Source: Escherichia coli (GTDB lineage Bacteria > Pseudomonadota > Gammaproteobacteria > Enterobacterales > Enterobacteriaceae). From it: a DNA stretch of 64,000 nt. The notes beneath the pieces were generated by a model that searched no databases, was not told where the DNA came from, and saw only the letters and a program-made list of their open reading frames with translations. Positions within the stretch are counted from its first letter, which is position 1, and the number at the start of each line of letters is the position of its first letter. Both the position numbers and the translations under genes were made by a program. This document shows, in pieces, positions 10,751 to 51,431 of this stretch. The stretch lies in NCBI RefSeq assembly GCF_022846255.1, contig NZ_AP025682.1. One strand, written 5' to 3'.

Positions 10751-10804
10751 TGGTTGTCGAAGTACGCAGTAAATAAAAAATCCACTTAAGAAGGTAGGTG
10801 TTAC

Positions 10805-13087
10805 ATGTCCGAGCTTAATGAAAAGTTAGCCACAGCCTGGGAAGGTTTTACCAAAGGTGACTGGCAGAATGAAGTAAACGTCCGTGACTTCATTCAGAAA
10901 AACTACACTCCGTACGAGGGTGACGAGTCCTTCCTGGCTGGCGCTACTGAAGCGACCACCACCCTGTGGGACAAAGTAATGGAAGGCGTTAAACTGGAAA
11001 ACCGCACTCACGCGCCAGTTGACTTTGACACCGCTGTTGCTTCCACCATCACCTCTCACGACGCTGGCTACATCAACAAAGCGTTGGAAAAAGTTGTTGG
11101 TCTGCAGACTGAAGCTCCGCTGAAACGTGCTCTTATCCCGTTCGGTGGTATCAAAATGATCGAAGGTTCCTGCAAAGCGTACAACCGCGAACTGGACCCG
11201 ATGATCAAAAAAATCTTCACTGAATACCGTAAAACTCACAACCAGGGCGTGTTCGACGTTTACACTCCGGACATCCTGCGTTGCCGTAAATCCGGTGTTC
11301 TGACCGGTCTGCCAGATGCTTATGGCCGTGGTCGTATCATCGGTGACTACCGTCGCGTTGCGCTGTACGGTATCGACTATCTGATGAAAGACAAATACGC
11401 TCAGTTCACCTCTCTGCAGGCTGATCTGGAAAACGGCGTAAACCTGGAACAGACTATCCGTCTGCGCGAAGAAATCGCTGAACAGCACCGCGCTCTGGGT
11501 CAGATGAAAGAAATGGCTGCGAAATACGGCTACGACATCTCTGGTCCGGCTACCAACGCTCAGGAAGCTATCCAGTGGACTTACTTCGGCTACCTGGCTG
11601 CTGTTAAGTCTCAGAACGGTGCTGCAATGTCCTTCGGTCGTACCTCCACCTTCCTGGATGTGTACATCGAACGTGACCTGAAAGCTGGCAAGATCACCGA
11701 ACAAGAAGCGCAGGAAATGGTTGACCACCTGGTCATGAAACTGCGTATGGTTCGCTTCCTGCGTACTCCGGAATACGATGAACTGTTCTCTGGCGACCCG
11801 ATCTGGGCAACCGAATCTATCGGTGGTATGGGCCTCGACGGTCGTACCCTGGTTACCAAAAACAGCTTCCGTTTCCTGAACACCCTGTACACCATGGGTC
11901 CGTCTCCGGAACCGAACATGACCATTCTGTGGTCCGAAAAACTGCCGCTGAACTTCAAGAAATTCGCTGCTAAAGTGTCCATCGACACCTCTTCTCTGCA
12001 GTATGAGAACGATGACCTGATGCGTCCGGACTTCAACAACGATGACTACGCTATCGCTTGCTGCGTAAGCCCGATGATCGTTGGTAAACAAATGCAGTTC
12101 TTCGGTGCGCGTGCAAACCTGGCGAAAACCATGCTGTACGCAATCAACGGCGGCGTTGACGAAAAACTGAAAATGCAGGTTGGTCCGAAGTCTGAGCCGA
12201 TCAAAGGCGATCTCCTGAACTACGATGAAGTGATGGAGCGCATGGATCACTTCATGGACTGGCTGGCTAAACAGTACATCACTGCACTGAACATCATCCA
12301 CTACATGCACGACAAGTACAGCTACGAAGCCTCTCTGATGGCGCTGCACGACCGTGACGTTATCCGCACCATGGCGTGTGGTATCGCTGGTCTGTCCGTT
12401 GCTGCTGACTCCCTGTCTGCAATCAAATATGCGAAAGTTAAACCGATTCGTGACGAAGACGGTCTGGCTATCGACTTCGAAATCGAAGGCGAATACCCGC
12501 AGTTTGGTAACAACGATCCGCGTGTAGATGACCTGGCTGTTGACCTGGTAGAACGTTTCATGAAGAAAATTCAGAAACTGCACACCTACCGTGACGCTAT
12601 CCCGACTCAGTCTGTTCTGACCATCACTTCTAACGTTGTGTATGGTAAGAAAACTGGTAACACCCCAGACGGTCGTCGTGCTGGCGCGCCGTTCGGACCG
12701 GGTGCTAACCCGATGCACGGTCGTGACCAGAAAGGTGCAGTAGCCTCTCTGACTTCCGTTGCTAAACTGCCGTTTGCTTACGCTAAAGATGGTATCTCCT
12801 ACACCTTCTCTATCGTTCCGAACGCACTGGGTAAAGACGACGAAGTTCGTAAGACCAACCTGGCTGGTCTGATGGATGGTTACTTCCACCACGAAGCGTC
12901 CATCGAAGGTGGTCAGCACCTGAACGTTAACGTGATGAACCGTGAAATGCTGCTCGACGCGATGGAAAACCCGGAAAAATATCCGCAGCTGACCATCCGT
13001 GTATCTGGCTACGCAGTACGTTTCAACTCGCTGACTAAAGAACAGCAGCAGGACGTTATTACTCGTACCTTCACTCAATCTATGTAA
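10805..13087 (+). CDS. pflB: Pyruvate formate-lyase (formate C-acetyltransferase 1)
   Basis: 760-aa [32 protein letters not shown]..., C-terminal glycyl-radical motif RVSGYAV. Confidence 0.97.
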
Positions 13088-35102: not shown

Positions 35103-36152
35103 TTTGAAAACTGCCTGTACGGCAGTGAACAGCGCCCGCTTTTTTACCGCGTCAGCGCAGCGTTTCTAAGCTGCCTGTACGGCAGTGAACTCCCTGATTC
35201 AGTTGCGCTCCCCGACGAGCTGTTTCTAAGCTGCCTGTACGGCAGTGAACCGTTGGCGTTTCGCGGCAACAGGTTTTTCAATTTTCTAAGCTGCCTGTAC
35301 GGCAGTGAACGTAGTTTTGATTCCAGCGATAACTGCCTATTTATTTCTAAGCTGCCTGTACGGCAGTGAACGTAGTTTTGATTCCAGCGATAACTGCCTA
35401 TTTATTTCTAAGCTGCCTGTACGGCAGTGAACGATCAGGCCCGGCTTTCCCCACACGTTCGTATTTTCTAAGCTGCCTGTACGGCAGTGAACCGCCTGCC
35501 ATTCAACCTGCAAATAGTTTTCGATTTCTAAGCTGCCTGTACGGCAGTGAACGAACTGTGGCACGAGGTTGCAGGCGTAAGACTTTTCTAAGCTGCCTGT
35601 ACGGCAGTGAACGCCATCTTTGAATATAACGCCCCGATTGTGATTTTCTAAGCTGCCTGTACGGCAGTGAACCCCTACCGTTTTAATAAATGGGATTTGC
35701 ATTATTTCTAAGCTGCCTGTACGGCAGTGAACGCTGAGGTGTTTACAATGCGTGCCGTGCTGGTTTTCTAAGCTGCCTGTACGGCAGTGAACTCTGTTTT
35801 TCGTCAGCAGGATTAAACCAGGCATTTCTAAGCTGCCTGTACGGCAGTGAACTCTCATCAATTACGGGTTCGTTGGCTGGATCTTTTCTAAGCTGCCTGT
35901 ATGGCAGTGAACGTCTTCTGCGCATCCGTACCACTCACCAATGATTTCTAAGCTGCCTGTATGGCAGTGAACTTAATCGGTAACGTTGCTCTAATTCCCC
36001 CTCTTTTCTAAGCTGCCTGTATGGCAGTGAACCCAGCGAGAATTGAGGCTGTTTGCCGTGTGCTTTTCTAAGCTGCCTGTATGGCAGTGAACATAAACGC
36101 GCGCAGGTTGTTGAGGTGCTCGAGTTTCTAAGCTGCCTGTATGGCAGTGAAC
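35103..36152 (-). CRISPR. Type I-F CRISPR array A: 18 repeats, 17 spacers (16 unique)
   Basis: 28-bp repeat (RNA sense on minus strand GTTCACTGCCGTACAGGCAGCTTAGAAA) at 60-61 bp period with 32-33 bp spacers; degenerate terminal repeat at 35103..35130; five repeats at 35885..36152 carry a loop variant. Confidence 0.97.
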
Positions 36153-36495: not shown

Positions 36496-36583
36496 GGTGA
36501 GGTGTCCGAGTGGCTGAAGGAGCACGCCTGGAAAGTGTGTATACGGCAACGTATCCGGGGTTCGAATCCCCGCCTCACCGCCA
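36496..36583 (+). tRNA. serW: tRNA-Ser (anticodon GGA)
   Basis: 88-nt sequence GGTGAGGTGTCCGAGTGGCTGAAGG...TTCGAATCCCCGCCTCACCGCCA with long variable arm and encoded CCA. Confidence 0.93.
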
Positions 36584-36704: not shown

Positions 36705-37718
36705 CTAGTCGTAGGATACGGCAAATATGGCTTTGCTTTGGACTTCTCCAGGCTGTAGTGCTTCCTCCTTCACGCGGACATATTTCGCGGTAATCGGGAA
36801 GGTGTACTGATTCTCAATGGCCGCCATTTTAGTTAGTTTGTTCATCAGAGTATCACCCAGCTTTAACGGTGTTGTTGCGTTACCATTATAAATCTGGAAC
36901 CCAACCCCCTTAGCACCATTAAGCGATGTGTTTTTCAGAATGGTTCCACTATCATCCCATTCACCGCGCGCAACTTTAAAAGTCACTGGATTAGTCGTGA
37001 CGTTATAAACACTGTCACAATTTAAAACCAGATCTATAGAACCTGATTTCGTGTTATTGGCAGATTGCATCTCACTTACCGTTGTTTCTGGCATTCTTAT
37101 TTCGTAAATCGGTTGCGAAAAACTACAGGTTGTGGGTTTGTGTTTGATGCTAAATTCTATATTCTGAGTGTAAGAAACATCACTATTTAGTCGCCCAGTA
37201 ACCCAACATAAAAGCCATGATATGATATTATTATTGCAAGAGTTATCTGTTAGTATGCTAATAGCGGGGCGCGGGATGGTTATCTTGTCGATATTGGTGG
37301 TTATAGTATGGTCTACTTTACTCGTTGGCCCAACATATTCTGCCTTAAGAGTGAACGGTTTGGTATTTATCACATCCTGAGTGTTATATTCTTTTGGAGA
37401 AGCACCCAAGGAGTCAGTTCCAGTAGAAACAGGAAAACTACTACTCTCAAGGTTAAATTTCATAAAAATTGATTTCCCCGAATCCGACTCTCTAAGTTCA
37501 ACGATATAATCTTTTAACGGTGTTGCATAATACATTTTATCGCTTGCTGCATTACATGTGAACGTATCGACTAAGTTTGTATGAATTACAGCCGTTACCG
37601 TATCTTGTGCCATATCCAGTTCTATCGTTTGGCTTGCTGTTGTATTAGGCCCCAAGGTACATTTAGCCTGCCCCAAAAAAGGCAAAGCCAGTAAAAACAA
37701 AAACCAATATTTCTTCAT
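36705..37718 (-). CDS. Fimbrial adhesin / minor tip subunit (chaperone-usher pilus)
   Basis: ORF 36705..37739 (TTG-initiated in the track); likely ATG start at MKKYWFLFLLALPFLGQA signal peptide; last gene of the operon; AT-rich codon usage. Confidence 0.6.
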   Translation of the reverse strand: MKKYWFLFLLALPFLGQAKCTLGPNTTASQTIELDMAQDTVTAVIHTNLVDTFTCNAASDKMYYATPLKDYIVELRESDSGKSIFMKFNLESSSFPVSTGTDSLGASPKEYNTQDVINTKPFTLKAEYVGPTSKVDHTITTNIDKITIPRPAISILTDNSCNNNIISWLLCWVTGRLNSDVSYTQNIEFSIKHKPTTCSFSQPIYEIRMPETTVSEMQSANNTKSGSIDLVLNCDSVYNVTTNPVTFKVARGEWDDSGTILKNTSLNGAKGVGFQIYNGNATTPLKLGDTLMNKLTKMAAIENQYTFPITAKYVRVKEEALQPGEVQSKAIFAVSYD

Positions 37719-37729
37719 AAACAAATCCT

Positions 37730-40222
37730 TTAACGACAAATATAAACTTTATTCTCATCAATAACGTTATCAAAGGTAATAGTGCAGAATTGTTCCTGCT
37801 GTTTATTAACCGAGACGCGAATCGACGCGGGAACATCATTGGTGCGAATAAATATCCGACTTCCCTGTCCTACTAAGCCCACATTATTGCCACTTTCATC
37901 TTCAACCTCATAACCAAACGGCAACGGAGAGCCATCAGGTCGTTGGGAGATGAAATACCAGGGCTTGCGTTTATCAGTCTCAAACTGCGTCATCACTACC
38001 GCACCACGATAAGGAACGGTGTTTTTACGGTTACCCAGTAGCGCCACATCGCTTTTACTGTCGGCAATATCCAACATCAACGTATTTTCACGATACGGCG
38101 TCAGGTTGTCATAAATAGCGTAGCCTCTGCTATCCGTGGTCAAGTAACGATATCCCTGCACCGCAGCCCCCTCCAGCCCAGGTGCTTTGACAATGGCAAA
38201 CGTATCGGAAAGTCTGGGAGCCAGTGCCACCCCGTCCGACCACGCGACGAAACCGCCTTGAATATTACCGCTAACCTGTTGATATCTTTTCGACTGGCTA
38301 TAGCTGCCACCAATAGTCGCCAATGGCGCACGCCAGGTCAGGTTTCCACCTGCTGTTGTTTCGCTGCCCTGGTGTTGATGGCTCAAGTTTGCCCCGTAGC
38401 TGAACTGATCGCGGCTCCCCGCTACACCGCTGAGGCTGGTATTATTCGACCGATAGCCGTCTTTATCAAAAGTGGTCGAGTTAGAAACAAATAAATCTCG
38501 TCGTTTTTCAGTGATTCCATCGCCCCACGAGAAGGGAATTGAGAAATATAAGTTAATGCGTCTATCTTCGCGGTTATCTTCGTCGTAGGTCTGGCTAACA
38601 GACAAGGTATAACTAAGGCGTTCCCAGGAGTTCGAATAGCTGAGTTGATAATCTTTCCCTGTCCCGCTGCGTTCCCAATAATCCCGCCATTGACCGCTGA
38701 CCGACAGATATCCCCAATTTTCCGGTAATGACTGGTTTATATTTACAGAAAAGCTGTTCTTACGACCAAAATCGTACTGATAATAGTCGGCGATATCATA
38801 AACTGAGTCATCTTCTCGATTATAACTTTTCCTGTTATTTGCCCTCACGTGATCGTTAAAAGTACGATAATCTCGAGAAGAATAACGCCAGGCCGCCAGC
38901 GAAAATTGCGTTCCACTTTGAGAGAGATATTTGTTCCACGCAATCTGATAACTTTGACCATTAAACACATCACCGTTATCTTGTTCACTGTGGGAATGGG
39001 TAAAATCAACAGATACCGCACCAATCGGTGTATTCCATCCCGTGCCGAGAACAAACGATGAGTAATTATCAGACAACTGCGTGCCAGCATAGAGAGTCAG
39101 CAAATTATTAAGGCCATACTGATAGCTTCCCTGAATAAAATCTGACTGATCGCTGGCTCCCTCAATACGGCTACGTCCGACAGCAAATTCATATTTCGAA
39201 ACGCCCGGTTGCAACATATTTGGTACCGATGAATAAGGTACACGATAACGCGACACCGAACCGTCAGCTTCTTTAACGGTAACTTCCAGATCGGCACCAC
39301 CACCTGCAAGTTGCAAATCATCAATGGCGAATGGACCTGGCGGAACTTCTTTCTGGTAAACCACAAAGCCATTTTGTTCGATAGTGACAAGTGCGTTACT
39401 TTGGGCAACACCACGCACCACAGGCGTAAAATTCTGTTTAGAGTTCGGCAACATCTGCATATCGCGCCAAAGGCGTACACCGCGAAAACGCACGGAGTCA
39501 AAAACATCAGAACCGGTATACATTTCACCAGCACGCAATGTGCCAAGAATATGTGGAATTCCGCGCTCCAGATATAACGTGTTACTCTTCCATTTACCGC
39601 TGTTATCGTCACTTTTCGTATAATTGGCATTTGAATGCAACTGCCAGCCCAGCAGATTCAAACCACTATTCAGATTTAAATAGCTACTTTTATTATCTCC
39701 TCCGTGCTTATAATTACTGTAATACTGACTGGCATAATAAGAAGTATATAATGCGTTAATCCCACGATCCCATGCCTCAGGTGGAACATATCCGCGTTCA
39801 TACTCAACAACATAGGCCTGGGGTACACTCAACTTCAGGTTAAAATGCCCAATATCATAGTCAACGCTACCTCCCTGTACTGCATCCCGAAGAGGTACGC
39901 ATTCTACGCCTTTATCAATATTAATTCCTTCAGTGAGGATACCTATTTGCTTTAACTGCTCCCAAGATAAACATGTCGCATCCGGATCATCTTTAATGTC
40001 GACATTATAGTGTCCGCGCCACTGATTATTCAGGTAAACATCCATATCATAGATACCTGGCATCGGCTTATCACTATCAATATGATAGTCAGAAATTTTT
40101 TCCCCATTTAATCCGCCAATCATAAAATGGGTGTCAAATGTTTCATCTTCCGCCCATGCAAGCGACGTTGCCAACACCGACAGGATAGCCAGCGTAATAG
40201 AATTAAGTTTAGACATAATCAA
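37730..40222 (-). CDS. Fimbrial outer-membrane usher protein
   Basis: 830-aa ORF, size and composition typical of FimD/PapC ushers, between chaperone and adhesin. Confidence 0.85.
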   Translation of the reverse strand: MIMSKLNSITLAILSVLATSLAWAEDETFDTHFMIGGLNGEKISDYHIDSDKPMPGIYDMDVYLNNQWRGHYNVDIKDDPDATCLSWEQLKQIGILTEGINIDKGVECVPLRDAVQGGSVDYDIGHFNLKLSVPQAYVVEYERGYVPPEAWDRGINALYTSYYASQYYSNYKHGGDNKSSYLNLNSGLNLLGWQLHSNANYTKSDDNSGKWKSNTLYLERGIPHILGTLRAGEMYTGSDVFDSVRFRGVRLWRDMQMLPNSKQNFTPVVRGVAQSNALVTIEQNGFVVYQKEVPPGPFAIDDLQLAGGGADLEVTVKEADGSVSRYRVPYSSVPNMLQPGVSKYEFAVGRSRIEGASDQSDFIQGSYQYGLNNLLTLYAGTQLSDNYSSFVLGTGWNTPIGAVSVDFTHSHSEQDNGDVFNGQSYQIAWNKYLSQSGTQFSLAAWRYSSRDYRTFNDHVRANNRKSYNREDDSVYDIADYYQYDFGRKNSFSVNINQSLPENWGYLSVSGQWRDYWERSGTGKDYQLSYSNSWERLSYTLSVSQTYDEDNREDRRINLYFSIPFSWGDGITEKRRDLFVSNSTTFDKDGYRSNNTSLSGVAGSRDQFSYGANLSHQHQGSETTAGGNLTWRAPLATIGGSYSQSKRYQQVSGNIQGGFVAWSDGVALAPRLSDTFAIVKAPGLEGAAVQGYRYLTTDSRGYAIYDNLTPYRENTLMLDIADSKSDVALLGNRKNTVPYRGAVVMTQFETDKRKPWYFISQRPDGSPLPFGYEVEDESGNNVGLVGQGSRIFIRTNDVPASIRVSVNKQQEQFCTITFDNVIDENKVYICR

Positions 40223-40230
40223 TCCCTGAT

Positions 40231-40911
40231 CTATTTGACGGTTTTTACTTTTTCACTCAAATAGTTCCCATGGTCATCAATCAGCGTAATTGTATATTGA
40301 TTGATGGCTAAGGCTGTGGTGATAGTCTTATCTGACCAGGGGGCTAATAACAACGTTTCGTGATTTATTTTTCCACTTCCCATCAACTCAGGAATAGTTA
40401 TCCAGTTTGCGGAGTTGTTTTTGATATTAATACCACCATTGGCATGCTTAATGCTCAGACGACGAAAACTTTCTTTATCTACGCCAGTAAGTCCCTCTGG
40501 GCGGTAGATAAATTTAATACGATTCTGCATGGCGAATTTTATGCCATTCTTATCTTCTAATTCGGGGCAATTAGGTGGGATGTCTAGCACATTAAGGAAG
40601 AATAGGCTTTCGCGATCTTTTGGTAGTGTATTCGCCAATTTTTTGATTTTGAGTTGTTGCCCTTCCCCCCCTTTTACGTGAGCGACCGGTGGCGTCAACA
40701 CAAACGGAACATGAATTTTTTCTGGGGGTAGACTGGTATCGCCATCATCAATCCATGACTGAACCAGGGCGCTACGATTACCTTCATTCATTAACTGAAC
40801 GGTAATCTCTTTTTTCTTTTCTGGATAAATAACACGAGTGCCGTAGATATAGACACCACTCCACGCAGGCGTGACTATGCCGGCCAGCAAGAAGGCTATT
40901 AATTTTTTCAT
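40231..40911 (-). CDS. Periplasmic pilus chaperone (PapD/FimC-like)
   Basis: 226-aa ORF with signal peptide MKKLIAFLLAGIVTPAWSG and chaperone-like N-terminal region. Confidence 0.8.
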   Translation of the reverse strand: MKKLIAFLLAGIVTPAWSGVYIYGTRVIYPEKKKEITVQLMNEGNRSALVQSWIDDGDTSLPPEKIHVPFVLTPPVAHVKGGEGQQLKIKKLANTLPKDRESLFFLNVLDIPPNCPELEDKNGIKFAMQNRIKFIYRPEGLTGVDKESFRRLSIKHANGGINIKNNSANWITIPELMGSGKINHETLLLAPWSDKTITTALAINQYTITLIDDHGNYLSEKVKTVK

Positions 40912-40964
40912 TAAACAATCCTTGTTTGAGAAATCGGCGACCGAAGCCGCCGATAAACACGATA

Positions 40965-41513
40965 TTAATCTGTCACGACAGTCATTGTCAGAGCAGAGTT
41001 AACCGGGCCAGCAGTCACCGCATCACCTGATTGCGCGTATTTCGCACTGAAATTTAGTGTATATTCATTAGAGCTGTTTTTTTCTAACTCAATACTTTTA
41101 TCACCGTCAATCTGTTGAGATTGCCCATCTGCACTCTCATAGTAGACAGCAAAACCAGCACCATTTGGGTTTGCCACAGTATTAATGGTGATATCGCTAC
41201 GATTTGCATCAAACTGACTTCTGGAAAACGTAATTCTGGGAGTCTCATCTCCTGTACATTTGACCGTCAGCGGTACAGTTGTTTTATTTGAATAACCATC
41301 ATAAATATAACCAGCGCTCTTACCATCAAATTGATCAGCACCAATATCGTTCATAGCAATAGTAGCCTGGCTATTTCCGATAAATTGACAAGTAGTTCCA
41401 ACCACATTACCGGTAATAACTAACTCACCCTGTTCACTCCCCTCCTCTGCAAAAGCCCCTGCACTCATAAAAAGAGAAGATAATACTGCAACTGCAATAA
41501 TTGAACGTTTCAT
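40965..41513 (-). CDS. Major fimbrial subunit
   Basis: 182-aa ORF with signal peptide and Thr/Ser/Gly-rich pilin-like composition; first gene of the operon, preceded by about 380 bp of AT-rich DNA. Confidence 0.75.
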   Translation of the reverse strand: MKRSIIAVAVLSSLFMSAGAFAEEGSEQGELVITGNVVGTTCQFIGNSQATIAMNDIGADQFDGKSAGYIYDGYSNKTTVPLTVKCTGDETPRITFSRSQFDANRSDITINTVANPNGAGFAVYYESADGQSQQIDGDKSIELEKNSSNEYTLNFSAKYAQSGDAVTAGPVNSALTMTVVTD

Positions 41514-41892: not shown

Positions 41893-42447
41893 TCAAAACC
41901 AGGGAATAGTGGCGGTTGCGCTTAATCCGTAACTACTAAATTCCCCTTTAACCGGTTCAGTAAGCAAATCACCATGACGGATAAACAGCTTGAACTGCTG
42001 CTGACTCGACAAACTATTCATATTAAGAAAGGGTAAATCGGTCCGCTGTTCAGCCTGCGTCGCCAGTCGCTCAATCGCCTGTTCTTCAGTTAGCCAGCCT
42101 TTTTTCACTGAACGCCTTAACAGACGCTGAGGGTTACTTTTTACCTGTACACGACTTACGACTCGCCAGCCTTTAATTTCAGGTACTAGCGTGACAGGCG
42201 AACATTGGCAGTAATCAGTAAGCCCTTTACGCCACGTAGAGGCTTCAAGTTCTTGCAATGCGGGGGCACTGCCGTGCAAGCGTAAACGCGCTCCCGGCGT
42301 AACATTCACGTCCGGGAAACTCACGCCGATATCACCTTGCCCTCTTGCACCTAATGCCCGATGCAATTTGGCAAATAACGCCGCCATCAACATTTCGCTC
42401 GAAAATTCAGGATCTGGCAGAACGCGGATCTCAAGGTAGTGATCCAT
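41893..42447 (-). CDS. cas6f: Type I-F CRISPR endoribonuclease Cas6f (Csy4)
   Basis: ORF 41893..42489; start placed at MDHYLEIRVLPDPEF; last gene of cas operon. Confidence 0.9.
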   Translation of the reverse strand: MDHYLEIRVLPDPEFSSEMLMAALFAKLHRALGARGQGDIGVSFPDVNVTPGARLRLHGSAPALQELEASTWRKGLTDYCQCSPVTLVPEIKGWRVVSRVQVKSNPQRLLRRSVKKGWLTEEQAIERLATQAEQRTDLPFLNMNSLSSQQQFKLFIRHGDLLTEPVKGEFSSYGLSATATIPWF

Positions 42448-42457
42448 TGGCAGCTCC

Positions 42458-43459
42458 TTATTCCGATTTCTCACCAAAGACACCGCCACGGATCAGCACA
42501 GCCATCACGTAGCGCTGCTGATCAACGTCTGGTTTCATCCCTTTAGTCACCCAATTGTCCAGTAAGGTATAAAAGTCGAGTTTTTCTTTCGGTTGACGGC
42601 AGGCCACACCGCGACTGGTTACAGAACCGTAAGGTTCCACGGCTATAGCCCCCAATTCATCAACCTTTGGATGCCAGGTATCAATGGTACGTAAAGCATT
42701 GCCAATCTTCTGAGAGTGAATACCGGCAATGCCAGCCACCTGGTATAACACGCGACTTTTACTACTGTTGCTGTCGAGTACCAGCTCCTGCGACGGAAAA
42801 ACTTCTTGCCCGGCACCAAGACGAACCTGCGCTTCAACGGTAAGCATCACCCACTCTTTTGCGCTTAATCCTTGCTCTATAATGGCCGCCAGCTGCGTGA
42901 CCGCTGCCTGTCCCTGGTCAAATTGACGTAAAGAGAAGTCATGGCTGTTAAAAGTCCAGGAAGTGTCGTTAGCAGTAACTTTCACCTGGATCTGCTCAGC
43001 ACCAATGCGGTTGCGCCACAGAAAACGACCATTTGCCAGATTCAGCGCATAGCGAAGCGCCAGCTCTTTAAAGCCATGTTCGCTGATGTAACCTTCAATG
43101 ACCCCGGAAAGCGCCTCCTGGTAAGCCATATCATTACATACTGACGGTGTGGATAAATTACCCAGCACACGCAGCGTAAACACCACCTTTAACGTATCCG
43201 CATCTACCGGAAGCGAAGCCACATCCACCCGTTGCAGGTTAGCTTTTTGGATTTCAGCATCCAGTTTTGTGGAGTCACTGGTAATCGTATTTTTCAAGCG
43301 ATTAGAGATAGTTCCGCGAACCGCTTTCTCCTGAATCTCAATGGGTTGCCATACATTTCCTTGCCAGTTACCTGCGTACATTACCGCGTCAGATGTTGCC
43401 AGTTTGCGCTCAAATGCCAGTACCGATGCCGTTTTTATTACTACAGGAGCCTTTGCCAT
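42458..43459 (-). CDS. cas7f: Type I-F Cascade backbone subunit Cas7f (Csy3)
   Basis: 333-aa [36 protein letters not shown]..., position in operon. Confidence 0.9.
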
Positions 43460-43469
43460 AATTATGTCC

Positions 43470-44393
43470 TTATTCTAAATCGTCATATTCATTAAAAGTA
43501 AAATCATCACCAGCTGGCATTGCCGAGCAATAGTAGCCAGTGTCCGTTGTGCGGTAACGCCACATCAGCGGTTGCAAGTCAGTTATGCGATGTAATCCGC
43601 GCCATTCGCCGATGCCATATACCGCTTCGGCAAAAGCAAATGGCGTCACGGTGTCGCGCGCATTTTCAACTTCACCGGGTGCGTAAACAGGAGAAATGCG
43701 TTGGTAGCCACACATTAACGGTACCAGGAAACCAGGCATTGGCTTCGGCTGATATGTCCATTTTGCGCTGTTGTCTTCTGCCGGAGATTCGGCCTGATAT
43801 TTAACGGCAGCAAAATCAAGCCAGGCATCCAGCAATGAGATGTCGGGATGTTGTTGGTGATGTTCAGCCAGCCATTCACTGCGATCGTAAAGCGCATAGC
43901 CAGGCATTAAACGCCAGATGATTTTACGCAGTTGCTTTTCATCTTCAGGCGCATGAAAAAGCTGTGGTTCGCGCATGTCAACAATGCTGCCGCCCGCCAG
44001 TTTGTGGCTCTGGCAGAGCATTTTCAGATGGTCACACAGAGCTTTTCTGCCATATTCACCATTGGTGATTTCCCCTTCACATTCAATGAGCAAAGATACC
44101 GTCAGATGCATACGGCCCTCTTCATTGAACGAAGCGGTTTTACCTTCTCTGGTTAGTGGGTTACGGGTGAGAGCAAACTGAAAATACCGCCCAGAGCTAT
44201 ATGCCTGAATATGTTGTTCATGGCTAACTACCGCGCAACCGTCAAAACTTACGCCAAAATCATCCGCCACTTTGCGAGAAAGCGCATGAACATAGCCGAG
44301 AAAATGGGTCATCGCCGGGAATCCCCAGGTCAACCCGGAGACGGCGTTAGCGTTTTCGATACGTATATGGGGTAACAAGAGCAGATAACTCAT
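43470..44393 (-). CDS. cas5f: Type I-F Cascade subunit Cas5f (Csy2)
   Basis: 307-aa ORF, operon position between csy1 and csy3, overlaps csy1 stop by 4 bp. Confidence 0.88.
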
Positions 44394-45697
44394 TTCAGCG
44401 CCTCCTGCAAAACAGCTTCCATTTCACGCATCCGTTGAGCGAACAGAGACTGGCTGCGCCATTCTCTTTGCTCGACAGCGCCCACGTCGAAACTGGATTT
44501 TTTCAGGCGATAGTTGAGCCAGCGCGCAAAATCATCGGCCACCGCCCCCTGCCAGTCGTTTTTCTCCCGCTCCAGTTTGAAAACCTCATCGGACAGGCTT
44601 CGCCACGGATCCAGCCAAAGCTGCTGATGGCGAGGTAAATCTTGCGATTGCGCTGACCATCCCTGCCATTTTTCTTGCTGAAAAGCGGATGCCTGCATGA
44701 ACAGCAGATCGATCAACTCATCAATATATTTCGCCCGCGCAGTTCGGATATGAACATTATTTATGTCAACCTTCAACAGGTAAGTCATCCGGGCGATAAT
44801 GCCCGAAGCCGCCCTATTGAAATCGCCGCGTAAGGCAAAAATACTGAGCATGTTTTGTGGTGCGCGATCCAGCGTCGCCCAGGTAGGCGGCATTGACGGC
44901 AACAGCCAGACGCGCCCCCCACGCACACTATTGAGCAATGAAATATTTTGCGGTTTTGTGCCTCCGAAATGCATTTCAGCAAGATTCGGGAAACGAATAT
45001 CTGGCTGTGAGTGCCATTTACCTGCTTTGTGCGCTTCGCGAATGGCTTTCGATTCCTCACTAAAGCGCACGGCGGTTAGCTTTTCATACATCGCCTGCGC
45101 CAGTGAACTGGAAAACAGTGGGCATAAGAGGTGATAACCATCCGCAACAGGGAAATAGATTTGTTTTGCCAGTTTATGGCTGGCAGGCCGTCCAGTTGTC
45201 CATGCCTGGCTAAACCCAGCTACCCACTGCTCCAGTTGCGCTTTATCCTCTGCAAACGTACTTAATGCCTGATAATCACCACGCTTCAGGCTGGCAAGCA
45301 GTGAATCTCCGTTCACATCAGTTTGTAGCAACTTTGCGACGTCAAGTGCAGCGGCGTTACCAATCGCGTCAGTAGCGACATTCGCCAACGATGCCGTGTT
45401 TAAATAGCTTTCGTTAGCGGAGGTTTCCAGATAAAAGCTACTGGCTTTAGAATCACCATGACTGAATTTAGCGCCATGAGTGACTAATTTGATTTGCCCG
45501 GCACGCTTTGCCGCATCCGTTAACCAGTGACGAGGCAGGTAGCGTGCCTCGAGTTCCTGCCGCTCCTGAGCGATGACGCTGGCATCCTCGCCCTGTTCCA
45601 GTCGCTTTGTTGCTTCTTTTTCAAAGGCCTCGACTTTGGGTTGCCTTCGCGAAGCGATATAGTCAGTGATAAATTGTATTAGCGCCGTTTTTTCCAT
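44390..45697 (-). CDS. cas8f: Type I-F Cascade large subunit Cas8f (Csy1)
   Basis: 435-aa ORF, AAGGAG RBS upstream of ATG, first gene of csy cluster. Confidence 0.88.
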   Translation of the reverse strand: MEKTALIQFITDYIASRRQPKVEAFEKEATKRLEQGEDASVIAQERQELEARYLPRHWLTDAAKRAGQIKLVTHGAKFSHGDSKASSFYLETSANESYLNTASLANVATDAIGNAAALDVAKLLQTDVNGDSLLASLKRGDYQALSTFAEDKAQLEQWVAGFSQAWTTGRPASHKLAKQIYFPVADGYHLLCPLFSSSLAQAMYEKLTAVRFSEESKAIREAHKAGKWHSQPDIRFPNLAEMHFGGTKPQNISLLNSVRGGRVWLLPSMPPTWATLDRAPQNMLSIFALRGDFNRAASGIIARMTYLLKVDINNVHIRTARAKYIDELIDLLFMQASAFQQEKWQGWSAQSQDLPRHQQLWLDPWRSLSDEVFKLEREKNDWQGAVADDFARWLNYRLKKSSFDVGAVEQREWRSQSLFAQRMREMEAVLQEALK

Positions 45698-45743
45698 CTC
45701 GGCTCCTTTCGTTAATCCATCAAATTGAAGTTGCTCCCTGACT

Positions 45744-45827
45744 TCACTGAAAAATCTCCGTAGCCCAACCAGGCTTCAGTACAACGACGCATACAGCAAA
45801 AGGGACAACACCCGTGGTGATAATCAT
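45744..45827 (-). CDS. Hypothetical 27-aa hydrophobic mini-ORF (MIITTGVVPFAVCVVVLKPGWATEIFQ); candidate Cre-repressed toxin or upstream leader peptide
   Basis: ATG preceded by AGGTGAG at 6-nt spacing; not in ORF track (too short); lies between the Cre-like target site and csy1. Confidence 0.2.
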   Translation of the reverse strand: MIITTGVVPFAVCVVVLKPGWATEIFQ

Positions 45828-45837
45828 GGATAGCTCA

Positions 45838-45871
45838 CCTAGAGGTATCTACGTTTTAATCTAGTAAAATC
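45838..45871 (+). promoter_or_regulatory. Putative Cascade binding site (CC PAM + 11-nt seed match to the psi-spacer), overlapping a putative minus-strand promoter and RBS
   Basis: cc-tagaggtatct at 45838..45850 is identical to the first 11 nt of the psi-spacer at 45969..45979; I-F PAM is 5'-CC on the non-target strand. Confidence 0.45.
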
Positions 45872-45940
45872 CATGCAATAACCAATAGTGATATTACCAT
45901 GCATGAAATATTTGCCACACAATGATTTAAAAACTAACAT

Positions 45941-46014
45941 TCACGCACTGCCGTTGGCAGCTTAGAAATAGAGGTATCTCCGGATACGGACTTGTAAACT
46001 GCCGTACAGGCAGC
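45941..46014 (+). ncRNA. Degenerate mini-CRISPR (psiR-psiS-psiR), CreA/CreR-like crRNA-resembling RNA gene
   Basis: psiR1 tcacgcactgccgttggcagcttagaaa (intact 8-nt 5' handle, shortened loop); 25-nt psi-spacer; psiR2 gtaaactgccgtacaggcagc (intact Cas6f hairpin, lacks 3' handle); orientation opposite to cas genes; possible promoter TTGCCA-17-TAACAT at 45912..45940. Confidence 0.5.
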
Positions 46015-46024
46015 CCGCGCCCCT

Positions 46025-49000
46025 TCACGGGGCGCGGTACACACCTAACCAGGGGTGATAACGCCAGTCATCGACCACATCTTCTTCACTGACGGGTACT
46101 CTCACCTCAGCAAACTTTTCCCCAACGCTTGCTATCTCACAACCTTGCTTATCAGCTAAATTCAACAAAACGTGTTGGTAATCCATCACGCCCCAGCAAG
46201 CGACACCGCTGGCGCATCTCACCTCTTCTCGCCTGAAATTCCCTTGCGCTTTACGCTCGTTGTCGCCCGTACGGGAATAGAAACGCGCTTCGCTTTCTTC
46301 ATCATCCATATGCAGAAAAAATACCGCCTCCGGCAAAGGGGAATAACGAAATGGCGTCTGGCGCTGTATCCAGCCGTTCCAGCTTAGCGGTGCACGCCAC
46401 CATTGCGCCGCCACCACATGTTTGCTTTTACTGCTCATCAATTCGGCGGATAAACGACTATGTTCTAGCTCCGCCAGTTTGTTGGCATTATTGGCAGACA
46501 GGATCCGCGGCAAGGCGTTAATCGTCCGGTAGTCCGCGATCGGAATCAGTTCGCAAATATCGTGGCTATTCAGCAAGTGTTCTTTTGTTTCGAAACCAGG
46601 CTTACAAAATGCGGGGGCTTTTTTCTGCAATGATTTGATATTGCTACGCAAAATAACCAGATTCTCACTGGTCGGCACATTTCTACGGTGGCGCTGAATA
46701 CGTCCGGCAAATTGAATTATCGAACGCATGGAGCTTGGTTCGATAATTCCCCAATCCGCATCCCAGTCACGCCCCACTTCTATAACCGATGTCCCCAACA
46801 CCACAAACAGATGGTGCGATTCCGGACGGTTATGTAAGGCATCTGCGATATCTTCGTTGTTCCAGAAATCGAGTTCGTTATGACGGGTAAAAGCGCGGTC
46901 CAGTCGCTTCTCAATATCTGAACGCACCGCCAGCGGGTGTCGGGAGTGGTAAACACAATAATGAATACAAACATTTTCTGGTGAAGGAATGGCAATCAGG
47001 GCTTTGGTCACTGCAACCAGTGGATTGATATTCGCGAAGCGCACCAGGCCCAGCGAAACGGTTTTACCGCTTTCGTGTAGCTGGCGATGCGCCTGATGCA
47101 ACTTCAGCATTTGCGTATGCACCGTCTGGGCCACACTTTCGGTAACATCCTGGATTGCAACTGATGCAGATGAAATCGAAGCAACACGCCCGAAATGCAG
47201 CCGCTCTTTTTCAGCCAGCATTACCGCCCGCCTGGCAACAAATTTTGTATGCGCATCGCGAAAGGCCGCTCCATCGCTAATTTGCGTGGCATCAGCATCG
47301 TTTTCGTCAAACCAGGCACAGCAAATATTGACGGGCCTGCCGTTGGTACCACAAGACGCCTGCCACATTTTACGCCCGGCAAGATAAGCCGCGAACAGCG
47401 CCTGAATCAGGCCTGGCGGAAGCGTCGCCGAAGAGAGTAACACCCGCGTTCCCAGCATCCCGGCCCAGTTCATCAAACGACATACCGCATGAAGATCAGC
47501 AATATCAAAGTCGTCGGGTTCGTCGAGCACTAAATCGCTGGTTAACAGACGCAACATCGCCGGAAGCTGTTTCCCGCCACGCACACCCTCGGTCGCGGAA
47601 ATAAGATGATCAATTGTCGCGACCAGAATCGGCGCGCTCACTAACGCCTTAAGTTTGCTGTCATCCTTCAACCATTTTTCCAGCGCCCCGGTATGCAGGC
47701 TGCCTTCGTACTTAACGAACTGTTGCTCCTCTGCCGGCGACTCTTGCGAGGCACTTCCACAATCATTGTCTATTTTTTCCTGCTGCCAGAGCTGTTTAAC
47801 TGCCGCCGAACCAATTAATACCGCCAGCTCATCCTCACCGAGTCCAAGTCGACTACGCAGAGCATCGCCGGTTTGCAAAGTCAGCGTACGCAATCCCAGC
47901 GCGACGGTAAAACGGCACCCTTCCCGCTCATCGGCAAGCGCATACATAATGCGGGCGTTCGCAAAGGTTTTACCGCACCCCGTCGAGGCCATATTAACGC
48001 CGAAAAATCCCTCCTCCCGGCTTCGTTCACGTAACGCTCGCGCCACATCCGAGGCTTTATCCTGCCAGCGATATTTCGCATCTGTAGCTCGCTGGCTAAA
48101 ACCTTTATGTCGGGCAATTGCCGGAAGAGAAGCCCGTGTGCGCATCAGCTGCCGCCCAAGCAAAAACGCATGATGTGCGACGCCGACCAGGTGCTCGTCC
48201 ACCCGTTGTTTGAGTGCGCCACTTTGCCTATCGCTATTTGCCCAGACGATATAATCCGGCTCCTGCCATTTTTGCTGCGCATCGCTTGAGGAATAGTAAT
48301 GATCGGCAAGCATCAGGCAAAAACGCGCCATATGTGAGGGGAACAACTGTTCCATCAGCCCGTATGTCTTTAAACCGAGCGCGTTACTTGCCCGGCGGGA
48401 AATCTGATGTGCTTTTTCTCGCCAGCTAGCACTCTGAAGCGGTGTTCCAGCCGGAAATTGCCAGACGTGCGCAAAATCCTGTTGTAACCAGTCATCTCTG
48501 CGGTGGTTAACGGCATTCCAGTCAGCATTAAGTTGCCTTTCCAGCCAACTTTCACACCCTTTGCAAGATTGTTCCGGTTGTGGCGAAAGATTCTCCGGAA
48601 TTCGATGATGGGAAAGGATCAGCCAACCTACCGTTTTGGCTAGCGGTTGCAGCGAAGTAAATGGGCTATCTGAAAATTGAGGCGTGTCTTTTAGCAGGCG
48701 TTCCAGAATCGCAGATTCATCATCTGCCGTAAGTTCGCCAAGCTTCGCCAGCCACACATCGTCGGGCCGATCACCGACAAACGCCTGAAAGAGCCGCAGT
48801 GAGATCCATTCATGTCGGTATGGTTGATAACTGCGGGCATTCTTTTGGGTCAGGCTTTGCTGAAAGCTGCGTCCGGATTTTCCAAAATCATGAAATAACC
48901 CGGCGATGGCTGCCAGCAGCGCAATGCTTTCCGCACATTGCCAGCGGTTTTCTTCCTTGTTCACCAGGCTGGTTTGCGTTGTGCGATTTGTGGGAACGCG

Positions 49001-49258
49001 CCCCTGAGCATTAAAACGACGAATATTACCCACAATCCACATCAACTCAATTTGTCCATTCTTCTTTAGCCAGTGACATGCCACTGCGGTATTTCGCCTG
49101 GCAGTTTTGCGCAGTAAACGGCGGAGTGTATTAACGCCTTCCAGAGTAATCACTGTTTGCCATGCGGCATCACCTGTACGTTCAGCAAACTGATCAATAA
49201 TACGGCAGCTTTCCACGCGGGCGTTTTTTGTACAGCGCGAGATAATCAGAACATTCAT
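46025..49258 (-). CDS. cas3: Type I-F Cas2-Cas3 fusion (Cas2 domain + HD nuclease + SF2 helicase)
   Basis: 1077-aa ORF; N-terminal Cas2-like region; HD motif LLAAIAGLFHDFGK; overlaps cas1 stop by 4 bp. Confidence 0.92.
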   Translation of the reverse strand: MNVLIISRCTKNARVESCRIIDQFAERTGDAAWQTVITLEGVNTLRRLLRKTARRNTAVACHWLKKNGQIELMWIVGNIRRFNAQGRVPTNRTTQTSLVNKEENRWQCAESIALLAAIAGLFHDFGKSGRSFQQSLTQKNARSYQPYRHEWISLRLFQAFVGDRPDDVWLAKLGELTADDESAILERLLKDTPQFSDSPFTSLQPLAKTVGWLILSHHRIPENLSPQPEQSCKGCESWLERQLNADWNAVNHRRDDWLQQDFAHVWQFPAGTPLQSASWREKAHQISRRASNALGLKTYGLMEQLFPSHMARFCLMLADHYYSSSDAQQKWQEPDYIVWANSDRQSGALKQRVDEHLVGVAHHAFLLGRQLMRTRASLPAIARHKGFSQRATDAKYRWQDKASDVARALRERSREEGFFGVNMASTGCGKTFANARIMYALADEREGCRFTVALGLRTLTLQTGDALRSRLGLGEDELAVLIGSAAVKQLWQQEKIDNDCGSASQESPAEEQQFVKYEGSLHTGALEKWLKDDSKLKALVSAPILVATIDHLISATEGVRGGKQLPAMLRLLTSDLVLDEPDDFDIADLHAVCRLMNWAGMLGTRVLLSSATLPPGLIQALFAAYLAGRKMWQASCGTNGRPVNICCAWFDENDADATQISDGAAFRDAHTKFVARRAVMLAEKERLHFGRVASISSASVAIQDVTESVAQTVHTQMLKLHQAHRQLHESGKTVSLGLVRFANINPLVAVTKALIAIPSPENVCIHYCVYHSRHPLAVRSDIEKRLDRAFTRHNELDFWNNEDIADALHNRPESHHLFVVLGTSVIEVGRDWDADWGIIEPSSMRSIIQFAGRIQRHRRNVPTSENLVILRSNIKSLQKKAPAFCKPGFETKEHLLNSHDICELIPIADYRTINALPRILSANNANKLAELEHSRLSAELMSSKSKHVVAAQWWRAPLSWNGWIQRQTPFRYSPLPEAVFFLHMDDEESEARFYSRTGDNERKAQGNFRREEVRCASGVACWGVMDYQHVLLNLADKQGCEIASVGEKFAEVRVPVSEEDVVDDWRYHPWLGVYRAP

Positions 49259-50244
49259 TGATCAGCCTTAGCCAGTGCCTGGGCAGTTTCCTGCAAAGAG
49301 GTGATCATGACATCCAGCGCATCCGTTTGTTGAAAGATATTGATGCAGCGTAGACGAAACTCCTGGGCATCTTCACCTGCCATCGCGGCGATAAATGCTT
49401 GCGGCATCACAAGGGCATCTTTAATCAGATCGGCAAGGTCAAAAACCAGCCCGCCGCGACGTGTTTTACCGTGCATTACTGCTAAACCGTGCGGGATCCC
49501 GGTTACCCACGCCGCCACTGCTGCCAGTCCATAAGCCAGATAATTCCCTTGATCGAGGAAGCGGTTGGCCATATCAATACCACCGCCCCGTTTTGCGCGA
49601 GTGAAATCGCCATACCCCACTGTTTGACTGACCATTTTGTATAACGCTTTAGTCAATTTGGCCTCTACGAGCATAAGCTGCGTATGGTTTTCTGCCGCGT
49701 CTATTTCTTCACGAGTACGATTCAGGAGGGTATGCAGCGCATTAACATCAGGTTGAAATGCGTGTTCACGCTGCATTTTCGAGCTGGACCAGTGCTTATC
49801 GATATGTGTCAGGCGGATTAACTGAAAACGTTTCGCGGCGGCAAGTCGTTTATCTTCAGCAAACCAAAAAGAAACCCACTGCTGGAGATACTCTGTAGGG
49901 CGATATTCACTTTGTGGGCTGAGCCAGGAGACATCAACATCCACTTCATTTGCCGAATACAGCGGCGTGCCATCCGTACCACAAAAGCCCACCATCACCC
50001 CGGCATGAGCAAATTCACGCATCGCCGCCTGAGTAACGGAAGTTCCCATTCCCAACATCAATGCCGTGGTATTCGCAATGGGGATATTCCAGTAGTACGA
50101 CTCTTTACCTTCGCTGGTGACATACTCCACCCGCCCACCATTCACCTGTACCCGGCATTTTTCCAGATAATAAATATTGGCGCGTTTGGAGTGGAGAATG
50201 GTTTTGAGATCGGAAGGCGTGAGGTAATTCGAAGACATAAACAC
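49255..50244 (-). CDS. cas1: Type I-F CRISPR integrase Cas1
   Basis: 329-aa ORF upstream of cas2-3, first gene of cas operon. Confidence 0.9.
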   Translation of the reverse strand: MFMSSNYLTPSDLKTILHSKRANIYYLEKCRVQVNGGRVEYVTSEGKESYYWNIPIANTTALMLGMGTSVTQAAMREFAHAGVMVGFCGTDGTPLYSANEVDVDVSWLSPQSEYRPTEYLQQWVSFWFAEDKRLAAAKRFQLIRLTHIDKHWSSSKMQREHAFQPDVNALHTLLNRTREEIDAAENHTQLMLVEAKLTKALYKMVSQTVGYGDFTRAKRGGGIDMANRFLDQGNYLAYGLAAVAAWVTGIPHGLAVMHGKTRRGGLVFDLADLIKDALVMPQAFIAAMAGEDAQEFRLRCINIFQQTDALDVMITSLQETAQALAKADQ

Positions 50245-50400: not shown

Positions 50401-51268
50401 ATTATCGTATTGTGAAACTACCTGTACGGCAGTGAACCGCGTAGAGCTGCTGCGCAAACTCGACACTCATTTCTAAGCTGCCTGTACGGCAGTGAACCCT
50501 CGTTCATCAAGGTGCTCAAAGCTTGACATTTTCTAAGCTGCCTGTACGGCAGTGAACGCCAAGAACGCTGTTACCGCTTCCCTGTGCGCTTTCTAAGCTG
50601 TCTGTACGGCAGTGAACCCAGATTGCCGAAAACATCGCCTTTGATGAACTTTCTAAGCTGCCTGTACGGCAGTGAACGGGCGCGGTGTCGTCCAGGATTT
50701 GGAGGCAACTTTCTAAGCTGCCTGTACGGCAGTGAACAACAGGTCGTCCAGCGCATCCCACGGATCCGGTTTCTAAGCTGCCTGTACGGCAGTGAACATC
50801 GCGCACACGCAGTCTTACATTTGCCACCATTTCTAAGCTGCCTGTACGGCAGTGAACGAGTGATTATTATGGCCCAATCGGACGATGACTTTCTAAGCTG
50901 CCTGTACGGCAGTGAACCTCCACCCGTGGTAAGCAGAAAGGGCCGTAACTTTCTAAGCTGCCTGTACGGCAGTGAACTGATCTGTTGCGATACTGACAGT
51001 ATCGTTAGCTTTCTAAGCTGCCTGTACGGCAGTGAACTGTTTTTTTGACGTGTAAACCGGGCGGTTTTTTTTCTAAGCTGCCTGTACGGCAGTGAACATC
51101 TCCGTATTTACTGTCCTCCCTGCTATCCATTTCTAAGCTGCCTGTACGGCAGTGAACTGCCAGTTTCGAAAACGTGCAGCAAATGCAGTTTTCTAAGCTG
51201 CCTGTACGGCAGTGAACTACCTTAATTTGAAATGAACCTTTGCCGCATATTTCTAAGCTGCCTGTACG
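50401..51268 (-). CRISPR. Type I-F CRISPR array B: 15 repeats, 14 spacers
   Basis: same 28-bp repeat at exact 60-bp period, 32-bp spacers; degenerate terminal repeat at 50401..50428 next to cas1; repeat at 50581 has a stem substitution. Confidence 0.97.
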
Positions 51269-51431
51269 GCAGTGAACTCAAATACTACACGTTTAGCTCG
51301 TTGTTGATAAAGAAAAATCATCTCATTTTCCTGCTGCCACCCTTTTTTATTCTTACCTTCCAGCACCATTAATTATCAACAACTTACCTTCACCTCCAAA
51401 AATAGGGTTTTCACCGTTCCCCCCTACAAAC

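Follow-up and report, generated by a model that had tools for sequence, protein, structure and literature searches.

The type I-F locus and its intergenic region

In the 64-kb stretch of E. coli DNA that was analysed as a whole and is referred to here as the window, the cas genes of a type I-F system lie on the minus strand between two CRISPR arrays, which share the repeat GTTCACTGCCGTACAGGCAGCTTAGAAA and have spacers of 32 nt. Gene identities were assigned with NCBIfam equivalogs, at scores far over the cut-off, and the parts of the locus are as follows.

50410..51277, minus strand: CRISPR array upstream of cas1, used for the reference repeat and a source of competing crRNAs
49255-50244, minus strand: cas1 (NCBIfam equivalog match)
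46025..49258, minus strand: cas2-3 (NCBIfam equivalog match)
46025..50244, minus strand: the cas1 and cas2-3 block
44390..45697, minus strand: csy1 (NCBIfam equivalog match)
41893-42489, minus strand: cas6f (NCBIfam equivalog match)
41893..45697, minus strand: the csy1-csy2-csy3-cas6f operon, the putatively regulated genes
~35103..36152, minus strand: second CRISPR array, with an identical repeat

The first 3 kb of the window hold rpsA-cmk-ihfB, at 100% identity to E. coli. Between cas2-3 and csy1 is an intergenic region of 327 bp (45698-46024), and the allele found in the window is at most 91% identical to that of any among 5,426 complete E. coli genomes. By analogy with related systems, the products of the csy1-csy2-csy3-cas6f operon would also be the processors and carriers of the RNA that we predict from this region.

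A degenerate mini-array on the plus strand

The intergenic region contains two repeat-like units around one spacer-like unit, outside the regular arrays, preceded by a promoter-like site and followed by a GC-rich hairpin.

45912..45940, plus strand: predicted mini-array promoter, TTGCCA-17-TAACAT (promoter scan)
45941-45968, plus strand: psiR1, degenerate repeat tcacgcactgccgttggcagCTTAGAAA (sequence; CRISPR-DR4 22.7 bits)
45969-45993, plus strand: psiS, 25-nt spacer-like guide tagaggtatctccggatacggactt (= TAGAGGTATCTCCGGATACGGACTT)
45994-46014, plus strand: psiR2, gtaaACTGCCGTACAGGCAGC (sequence; CRISPR-DR4 20 bits)
46015-46023 / 46029-46037, no strand assigned: 9-bp GC hairpin with the cas2-3 stop codon inside its loop

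An earlier note on this DNA had described the gene bounds, the 327-bp gap and a psiR-psiS-psiR layout oriented against the cas genes, and on all of these the sequence agrees with it to the base. Its account of the repeats also held when they were set against the array repeat: psiR1 has kept the exact 8-nt 5' handle CTTAGAAA (45961-45968) behind a shortened hairpin, CTGCC-GTT-GGCAG (45948-45960), of 13 nt vs 15 nt in the array repeat, and psiR2 consists of GTAAAC (GTTCAC in the array repeat), the exact Cas6f hairpin CTGCCGTACAGGCAG (45999-46013) and a C, and lacks the TTAGAAA handle. The two units thus divide the repeat between them, psiR1 retaining the 5' handle and psiR2 the 3' hairpin, with both hairpins kept. 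When every allelic variant of psiR1 was folded, the stem terminated exactly at the handle, as it does in the canonical repeat. The seed of psiS comprises positions 1-11 and takes part in an internal hairpin, GTATC-TCCG-GATAC.

Allowing up to two mismatches, the 15-nt hairpin has 34 copies in the window vs 0.1 expected; the only plus-strand copy is that of psiR2, and the mini-array is opposite in strand to both arrays. Scored against the Rfam family CRISPR-DR4, the two pseudo-repeats reached 22.7 and 20 bits, below the gathering score of 35, as was to be expected because the repeats are degenerate. A canonical CRISPR array was ruled out by this degeneracy, by the length of psiS (25 nt, with 32 nt in the arrays) and by the presence of one unchanging spacer in all alleles. 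Many E. coli records annotate a spurious 104-aa protein over the mini-array.

The promoter that the earlier note had proposed, TTGCCA-17-TAACAT, was the sole promoter-like site called in a scan of 45500-46300. Its -10 element adjoins psiR1, and the expected start (~45946-45948) falls just 5' of the psiR1 hairpin. The site was the best position weight matrix (PWM) match in each of the eight loci scanned, scoring 13.0 bits in six of them, with the -35 variants TTGCAG and TTGCAA in the remainder. The note was right, too, that a GC hairpin at 46015-46037 straddles the cas2-3 stop codon; however, this hairpin is, as judged from related sequences, no conserved part of the mini-array, being only 73% identical across alleles and degenerate in several, and it also adjoins cas2-3 in Pseudocitrobacter, a locus that has no mini-array. 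As a candidate terminator it was rejected on the same poor conservation and on a scan of both strands that called no terminator-like site.

A PAM-flanked target upstream of csy1

Within this intergenic region, on the csy1 side of the mini-array, a site that carries the cognate PAM is complementary to the PAM-proximal part of psiS, and the best predicted promoter for the csy genes is found there too.

45838-45839 and 45840-45864, plus strand (non-target strand): CC PAM and protospacer with a seed match to psiS
-35 at 45885..45880 and -10 at 45863..45858, minus strand: best predicted csy-sense promoter, TTGGTT-16-TAGATT (PWM 8.3 bits, weak)

CC-TAGAGGTATCT at 45838-45850 pairs with the first 11 positions of psiS, and there are further matches at positions 13, 14 and 17. 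The distance to psiS, which is downstream on the plus strand, is 104 nt, and that to the csy1 ATG, downstream on the minus strand, is 141 bp; the target is located behind the mini-array promoter, so that the two transcription units diverge. The two strands of the 64-kb window hold ~7,200 sites flanked by CC, of which one agreed with psiS at 10 of 10 positions in seed 1-5 and 7-11, with the runner-up at 8 of 10; the exact target 13-mer occurs once in the window, the expectation for a random 13-mer being ~1e-5 per 327 bp. The DNA copy of psiS itself is preceded by AA, not CC, and is therefore not a self-target. The earlier note had missed the target site and had named a decayed array fragment with no matching target elsewhere as what would speak against its reading, a picture that the target contradicts.

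The pairing between psiS and its target is short, with 10 effective seed pairs and 2-3 more, vs ~19-20 nt in validated I-F examples. The -10 element and the expected start of the predicted csy promoter fall inside the protospacer, in a PWM match that is weak (8.3 bits) and has alternatives. The match recurs in the window-type alleles, and the ATCC-type allele has a -10-like hexamer at the same place. Taken from the sequence, the short pairing and the weak csy promoter prediction would both count against a reading of the element as an autorepressor.

Conservation and co-variation among Escherichia alleles

Nine distinct alleles of the region were compared: that of the window, four from E. coli (L001-L004), and one each from E. 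whittamii (L005), E. coli SCPM (L006), Escherichia sp. E1V33 (L007) and a metagenome (L027). A search of genome contigs with Csy1 had returned eight loci, four of them close, and a metagenome search with psiS and psiR2 four loci, with one new allele. For each part of the region, conservation was expressed as the mean pairwise identity among the nine alleles, which form a small and closely related set.

handle: 95% identity
psiR1 hairpin: 85% identity, with changes in the loop only, or a 4-bp stem
psiS 1-11: 93% identity
psiS 12-25: 100% identity
psiR2: 98.9% identity
target seed: 92% identity
target 12-25: 60% identity
DNA between the target and the mini-array promoter: 71% identity
GC hairpin: 73% identity
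cas2-3 coding: 91% identity
csy1 coding: 83% identity

The mini-array is 93-100% identical vs 60-73% for nearby intergenic DNA, and both the element and the match of its spacer to the target are conserved in the related loci that make up the nine alleles. Psi-repeats less conserved than their flanks, which the earlier note had named as an argument against its reading, were not seen in this Escherichia set. The CC PAM and the pairing at seed positions 1-5 and 7-11 are present in nine of nine alleles, as is a target-to-psiS distance of 104-105 nt.

Seed variation in the nine alleles is confined to positions 5 and 6. In the 503025-type allele, position 5 changes from G to T in psiS and target alike, a compensatory change and the sole such event seen, which provides the co-variation with the target that the earlier note had proposed looking for. 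At position 6 the psiS/target combinations G/G, G/A, A/A, A/G and G/T all occur, and position 12 is mismatched in all nine. In type I-F guides every sixth base is flipped out and unpaired (10.1101/2023.03.03.530964; 10.64898/2026.06.02.729485), and the pattern at positions 5, 6 and 12 is the one to be expected of such a guide. No seed variant beyond these came from four further E. coli genomes. One additional target allele (L030, assembly GCA_027213255.1) has a T to A change at seed position 9, on a contig that ends before the mini-array; this allele occurs in no complete genome.

The anatomy, the PAM-flanked partial target, the conservation and the co-variation are thus direct observations, and the CC-flanked target, the conservation above background and the I-F pairing pattern support the reading that the earlier note had offered, namely that of a CreA/CreR-like regulatory mini-CRISPR. 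One observation goes the other way: positions 12-25 of psiS are invariant in the nine alleles despite largely not pairing with the target, and this is a point against the guide model, which leaves it unexplained.

Distribution of the module

Among E. coli genomes having this cas2-3, 238 of 240 carry the module. In Pseudocitrobacter faecalis, with a Csy1 71% identical, cas2-3 and csy1 are ~30 bp apart and there is no module between them, and the mini-array module was absent from three distant I-F loci that were checked. Desulfamplus magnetovallimortis (L011) offers an independent case: its I-F locus contains a mini-array laid out in the same way, whose psiS, AGATTTTATATAGATTTGAT, is a different one and agrees with a CC-flanked site upstream of the csy1 in that locus except at positions 13 and 18. 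GTAAAC was considered as a general signature of I-F psiR2 and discarded, the Desulfamplus array repeat itself beginning with GTAAAC.

No match was obtained when the mini-array was searched with blastn against 50,697 phage records, nor when the whole intergenic region was searched against 72,556 plasmids. In IMG/VR, 12 matches to handle plus seed were found, all without the repeat hairpin, and were attributed to chance in AT-rich DNA. A phage- or plasmid-encoded mimic (Racr/Cracr) was rejected in view of the chromosomal location inside the cas operon and the lack of a match in the phage and plasmid collections.

A proposed circuit for csy autorepression

We consider it likely that the element is a CreR-type (cas-regulating) crRNA-like gene, i.e. 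a regulatory mini-array, that steers the Csy complex onto the region upstream of csy1 for self-repression. The mechanism has been validated in relatives, namely P. aeruginosa YL84 (10.1101/2023.03.03.530964), P. aeruginosa CreA1/2 (10.64898/2026.06.02.729485) and A. baylyi CreA, and it is on these that transcription, Cas6f processing, loading, non-cleaving binding, the promoter position and the feedback logic are modelled here.

In the proposed circuit, the conserved sigma-70 promoter (45912-45940) would transcribe the plus strand, opposite to the cas genes. Cas6f would then cut both pseudo-repeat hairpins at their 3' base, assuming that it accepts the psiR1 hairpin, which is 2 nt shorter, and would release an RNA of ~53 nt made up of CUUAGAAA, the 25-nt psiS and GUAAACUGCCGUACAGGCAG.

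45961..46013, plus strand: predicted mature 53-nt crRNA-like RNA with an 8-nt handle, the 25-nt psiS and a 20-nt 3' hairpin part (Cas6f cleavage rule)

Together with Csy1-3 and Cas6f, this RNA could assemble into a shortened Csy complex, as the 48- and 54-nt CreA RNAs published for I-F do. The complex would read the CC PAM at 45838-45839 and pair with the minus strand at protospacer positions 1-5, 7-11 and 13-14. The resulting short R-loop would cover the predicted csy -10 element and start, 141 bp upstream of the csy1 ATG, and the bound complex may in addition obstruct read-through from cas1 and cas2-3. By analogy with the YL84 and CreA cases, such a partial match would block csy1-4 transcription and would not license Cas2-3, so that Csy would repress its own operon without recruiting Cas2-3 for cutting. 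Repression would be expected to relax upon inhibition of Csy by anti-CRISPRs or its titration by array crRNAs.

The csy1 leader and alternative explanations

In P. aeruginosa and Acinetobacter, mini-arrays at the same position have proved to be CreA antitoxins with a toxin downstream of the target, which brings the DNA between the E. coli target and csy1 into consideration.

45698..45837, minus strand: conserved 140-nt leader, from the target to the csy1 ATG
45827..45744, minus strand: 27-codon ORF in the csy1 leader, MIITTGVVPFAVCVVVLKPGWATEIFQ, with AGGTGA upstream

The element could on this account belong to a CreTA-type addiction or anti-anti-CRISPR module, whose RNA would be mainly an antitoxin (CreA) that silences the promoter of a leader-encoded toxin, the latter being a 27-aa hydrophobic peptide or an RNA toxin, perhaps on one transcript with csy1-4, the arrangement of P. 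aeruginosa CreTA1. We hold this to be unlikely, and the leader itself provides evidence in both directions. Positions 45698-45782 are 92-97% identical among alleles, above csy1 (83%) and cas2-3 (91%) and hence more conserved than the flanking cas coding sequence, and the mini-array, target and leader are missing together as one block in Pseudocitrobacter; yet the leader fold has no added stability over shuffles (z=0.4), and Rfam and NCBIfam searches of leader and ORF gave no family match.

The ORF opens right after the PAM, with an ATG behind an SD-like AGGTGA, and the first 17 residues of its product are strongly hydrophobic, but the AGG of the SD-like motif is dictated by the PAM and seed position 1. 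In the window-type alleles, the ORF has seven synonymous and seven non-synonymous substitutions vs 26% expected (p=0.047, uncorrected for phylogeny), with seven variable sites at third, five at first and one at second codon positions, which would suit a coding sequence. A peptide toxin is disfavoured by the ATCC 11775-type allele, the commonest in E. coli (201 of 238 genomes), in which a frame shift gives a 37-aa product with an unrelated and less hydrophobic C-terminus, and by the 3' half of the ORF, which is conserved at the nucleotide level regardless of frame. The 27-aa sequences are absent from a collection of 15 billion proteins, and the 37-aa variant appears there only as a 'hypothetical protein', clustered with the spurious 104-aa call. 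The tandem rare or proline codons and the hairpin-flanked mini-ORF of known CreT are also missing. Finally, an internal stop makes csy2 a pseudogene in E. coli ATCC 11775, so that no Csy repression would be expected there, yet the module is intact.

An enterobacterial safeguard of the CreTA kind, in which CreA-guided Csy would silence the promoter of an undescribed toxin ahead of csy1, be it the MIITTGVVPFAVCVVVLKPGWATEIFQ peptide or an RNA element in the ultra-conserved 85-nt stretch of the leader, is one to which we assign a low probability. If it were true, the frame-shifted allele that is widespread in phylogroup-B2-like strains would represent a detoxified derivative, and the 3' half of psiS, invariant though unpaired, would serve a further purpose, e.g. 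in a second target or in controlled processing.

The invariance of psiS 12-25 without target pairing is a point in favour of a host-encoded, Racr-like repeat decoy that would titrate Cas6f, or of a terminator or stabiliser at the cas2-3 3' end, for which the spacer would be irrelevant; on the minus strand, four hairpins (GC hairpin, anti-psiR2, anti-psiS and anti-psiR1) do follow the cas2-3 stop. This explanation appears very improbable, given the scan that called no terminator-like site on either strand and the poorly conserved GC hairpin, and it leaves the PAM, the seed match, the position-5 co-variation and the dedicated plus-strand promoter unaccounted for. A functionless remnant of a decayed CRISPR array or an ectopic repeat copy, for which the degeneracy of both repeats, below the Rfam threshold, and the many sporadic stand-alone repeats reported in I-F1 loci (10.1101/2023.03.03.530964) could be cited, is the least credible reading, as the element is 93-100% identical where adjacent intergenic DNA is 60-73%, has its own conserved predicted promoter and a unique PAM-flanked seed match with the compensatory, position-6 and position-12 patterns, and is oriented opposite to both arrays.

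Significance

Regulation of type I-F in E. coli is poorly understood, and the autorepression reading offers a concrete, testable circuit in the most tractable host, with guide, PAM, seed and target all within 180 bp and with natural alleles that supply compensatory and position-6 variants. If true, the circuit would explain low csy expression and its rise when anti-CRISPRs or abundant crRNAs titrate Csy. The element also matters for annotation, given the spurious 104-aa protein called over it in many E. coli records. The principle of autoregulation is established in Pseudomonas, Acinetobacter, Salmonella I-E, haloarchaea and Cas12a systems, and the conceptual gain is for this reason small unless a leader toxin is found.

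Comparison with known systems

Repeat-like sequences adjoining cas3 were reported in 25-29% of I-E, I-D and I-F1 loci by Shmakov et al. 2023 (10.1101/2023.03.03.530964), who validated one mini-array, in P. aeruginosa YL84, where repression occurred without cleavage. The E. coli element resembles their I-F1 regulatory mini-arrays in its place between cas2-3 and csy1/cas8f, its transcription opposite to cas3 (predicted here), its two repeat-like units, short spacer and CC PAM, and its partial seed-proximal match upstream of cas8f with mismatches at positions 6 and 12. It differs in that its psiS and target sequences are unrelated to those of the Pseudomonas mini-arrays and pair over a shorter stretch (1-11 and 13-14), and in that its target is behind the mini-array's own promoter, divergent and 104 nt away, whereas the target described by Shmakov et al. 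is downstream of the mini-array.

CreR was defined by Liu et al. 2023 (10.1101/2023.03.10.532045), with experimental demonstration for I-B, I-E and V-A and a listing of I-F candidates, and the name is conditional there on the question of toxin coupling. With CreR the E. coli element shares a stand-alone degenerate mini-CRISPR in which the handle is left in psiR1 and the 3' part in psiR2, limited complementarity by the effector promoter (predicted here) and the logic of autorepression (proposed here). For bacterial I-F CreA/CreR, psiS lengths of 23-27 nt have been reported, and the 25 nt seen here fall within them. Unlike the experimentally shown CreR cases, it belongs to subtype I-F, and its processing would involve the Cas6f hairpin.

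Closer relatives are P. aeruginosa CreTA1 and CreTA2 (Wang et al. 2026, 10.64898/2026.06.02.729485), whose mature CreA RNAs are 48 and 54 nt long, whose target is ~30 bp upstream of the -35 element of the toxin promoter and whose toxin consists of a GC hairpin and a 15-nt mini-ORF that has two proline codons. Common to these and the E. coli element are the cas2-3/csy1 intergenic position, the CC PAM, the unpaired positions 6 and 12, the psiR1 handle and the retention of both hairpins, and the dimensions are similar (psiS of 20 or 26 nt vs 25 nt in E. coli; RNA of 48/54 nt vs 53 nt predicted). Unlike P. aeruginosa CreTA, the E. coli locus has no such mini-ORF and has a predicted promoter that overlaps the target, and the candidate downstream of it is the 27-codon leader ORF.

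In the Acinetobacter I-F CreTA/CrePA systems (PMC10097628; Shu et al. 2024, 10.1101/2024.01.05.574328), a 30-nt psiS pairs over 19 nt, either a 103-aa KilAC protein or a small RNA acts as toxin, and the mature CreA has no 3' hairpin. The E. coli element is like these in the location of creA in the cas3-csy1 intergenic region, the CC PAM, seed pairing minus position 12 and a promoter-adjacent target (predicted here), but shows neither a 30-nt psiS nor 19-nt pairing, no KilAC or small-RNA toxin and no hairpin-less RNA. The main text of the key papers contains no description that we could find of an Escherichia I-F mini-array. The class is already known for type I-F, including the exact cas2-3/csy1 location, and the E. 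coli element probably belongs to it.

Conserved stretches of the cas2-3/csy1 intergenic region

The mini-array (psiR1-psiS-psiR2, opposite to the cas genes) and the leader that runs from its target to the csy1 start codon both hold stretches conserved among alleles of this region. Across the nine alleles compared, from E. coli, E. whittamii, Escherichia sp. E1V33 and a metagenome, the non-pairing 3′ half of the spacer-like psiS (45980-45993) is 100% invariant; this half and seed positions 6-10 fold into a hairpin (GUAUC-UCCG-GAUAC). In the csy1 leader, an 85-nt stretch (45698-45782, minus strand) shows 92-97% identity among alleles, which is higher than that of the flanking cas coding regions; this stretch had no match in an Rfam search, and a fold test of it returned nothing significant.

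One target allele carries a T to A change at seed position 9 (CCTAGAGATAACT), located at ~85-100 at the end of a contig of GCA_027213255.1. Since this contig stops short of the mini-array, the target side alone is represented, and the allele was absent from complete genomes (closest 95%).

Gene annotations at the locus

Many E. coli assemblies (864 contigs) carry an annotated 104-aa “hypothetical protein” that lies antisense across the mini-array and target, and the E. coli proteins P0001, P0003 and P0007 correspond to ~45700-46020 on the minus strand. One source labels the 104-aa product as a YbhN-family membrane protein. In some RefSeq genomes one locus-tag number is missing from the csy1-cas3f interval. 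The annotation looks like a spurious gene call on top of a non-coding RNA gene. In the E. coli type strain, ATCC 11775, the annotation lists csy2 (10725-11648 of its contig) as a pseudogene interrupted by an internal stop; despite this, the mini-array, target and leader are all intact.

Surroundings of the cas operon and comparison with other type I-F loci

Within the window, a fimbrial operon sets the cas operon apart from its downstream array:

36496-36583, tRNA-Ser(GGA)
36705-41513, minus strand, yehD-like chaperone-usher fimbrial operon between tRNA-Ser(GGA) and cas6f (major subunit, chaperone, 830-aa usher and a 344-aa ORF)

The downstream array, on the minus strand, includes two neighbouring, identical 33-nt spacers at 35291-35427 (repeat spacing 61 vs 60) and, at 35893-36147, a loop variant (CTGCCATACAGGCAG) in five leader-proximal repeats. 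E. coli ATCC 11775 differs from the window in that its order is infA-CRISPR-tRNA-Ser-cas6f, without the fimbrial insert.

Further afield, Desulfamplus magnetovallimortis has an independent I-F mini-array upstream of csy1 (~5715-5790 of its contig, minus strand), which has its own partial, CC-flanked target; in this organism GTAAAC also opens the repeat of the regular array. In E. whittamii and one metagenome allele, the psiR1 handle (the 8-nt 5′ crRNA part) reads CTAAGAAA, which is the Pseudomonas-type handle, whereas the arrays of these two loci retain CTTAGAAA.
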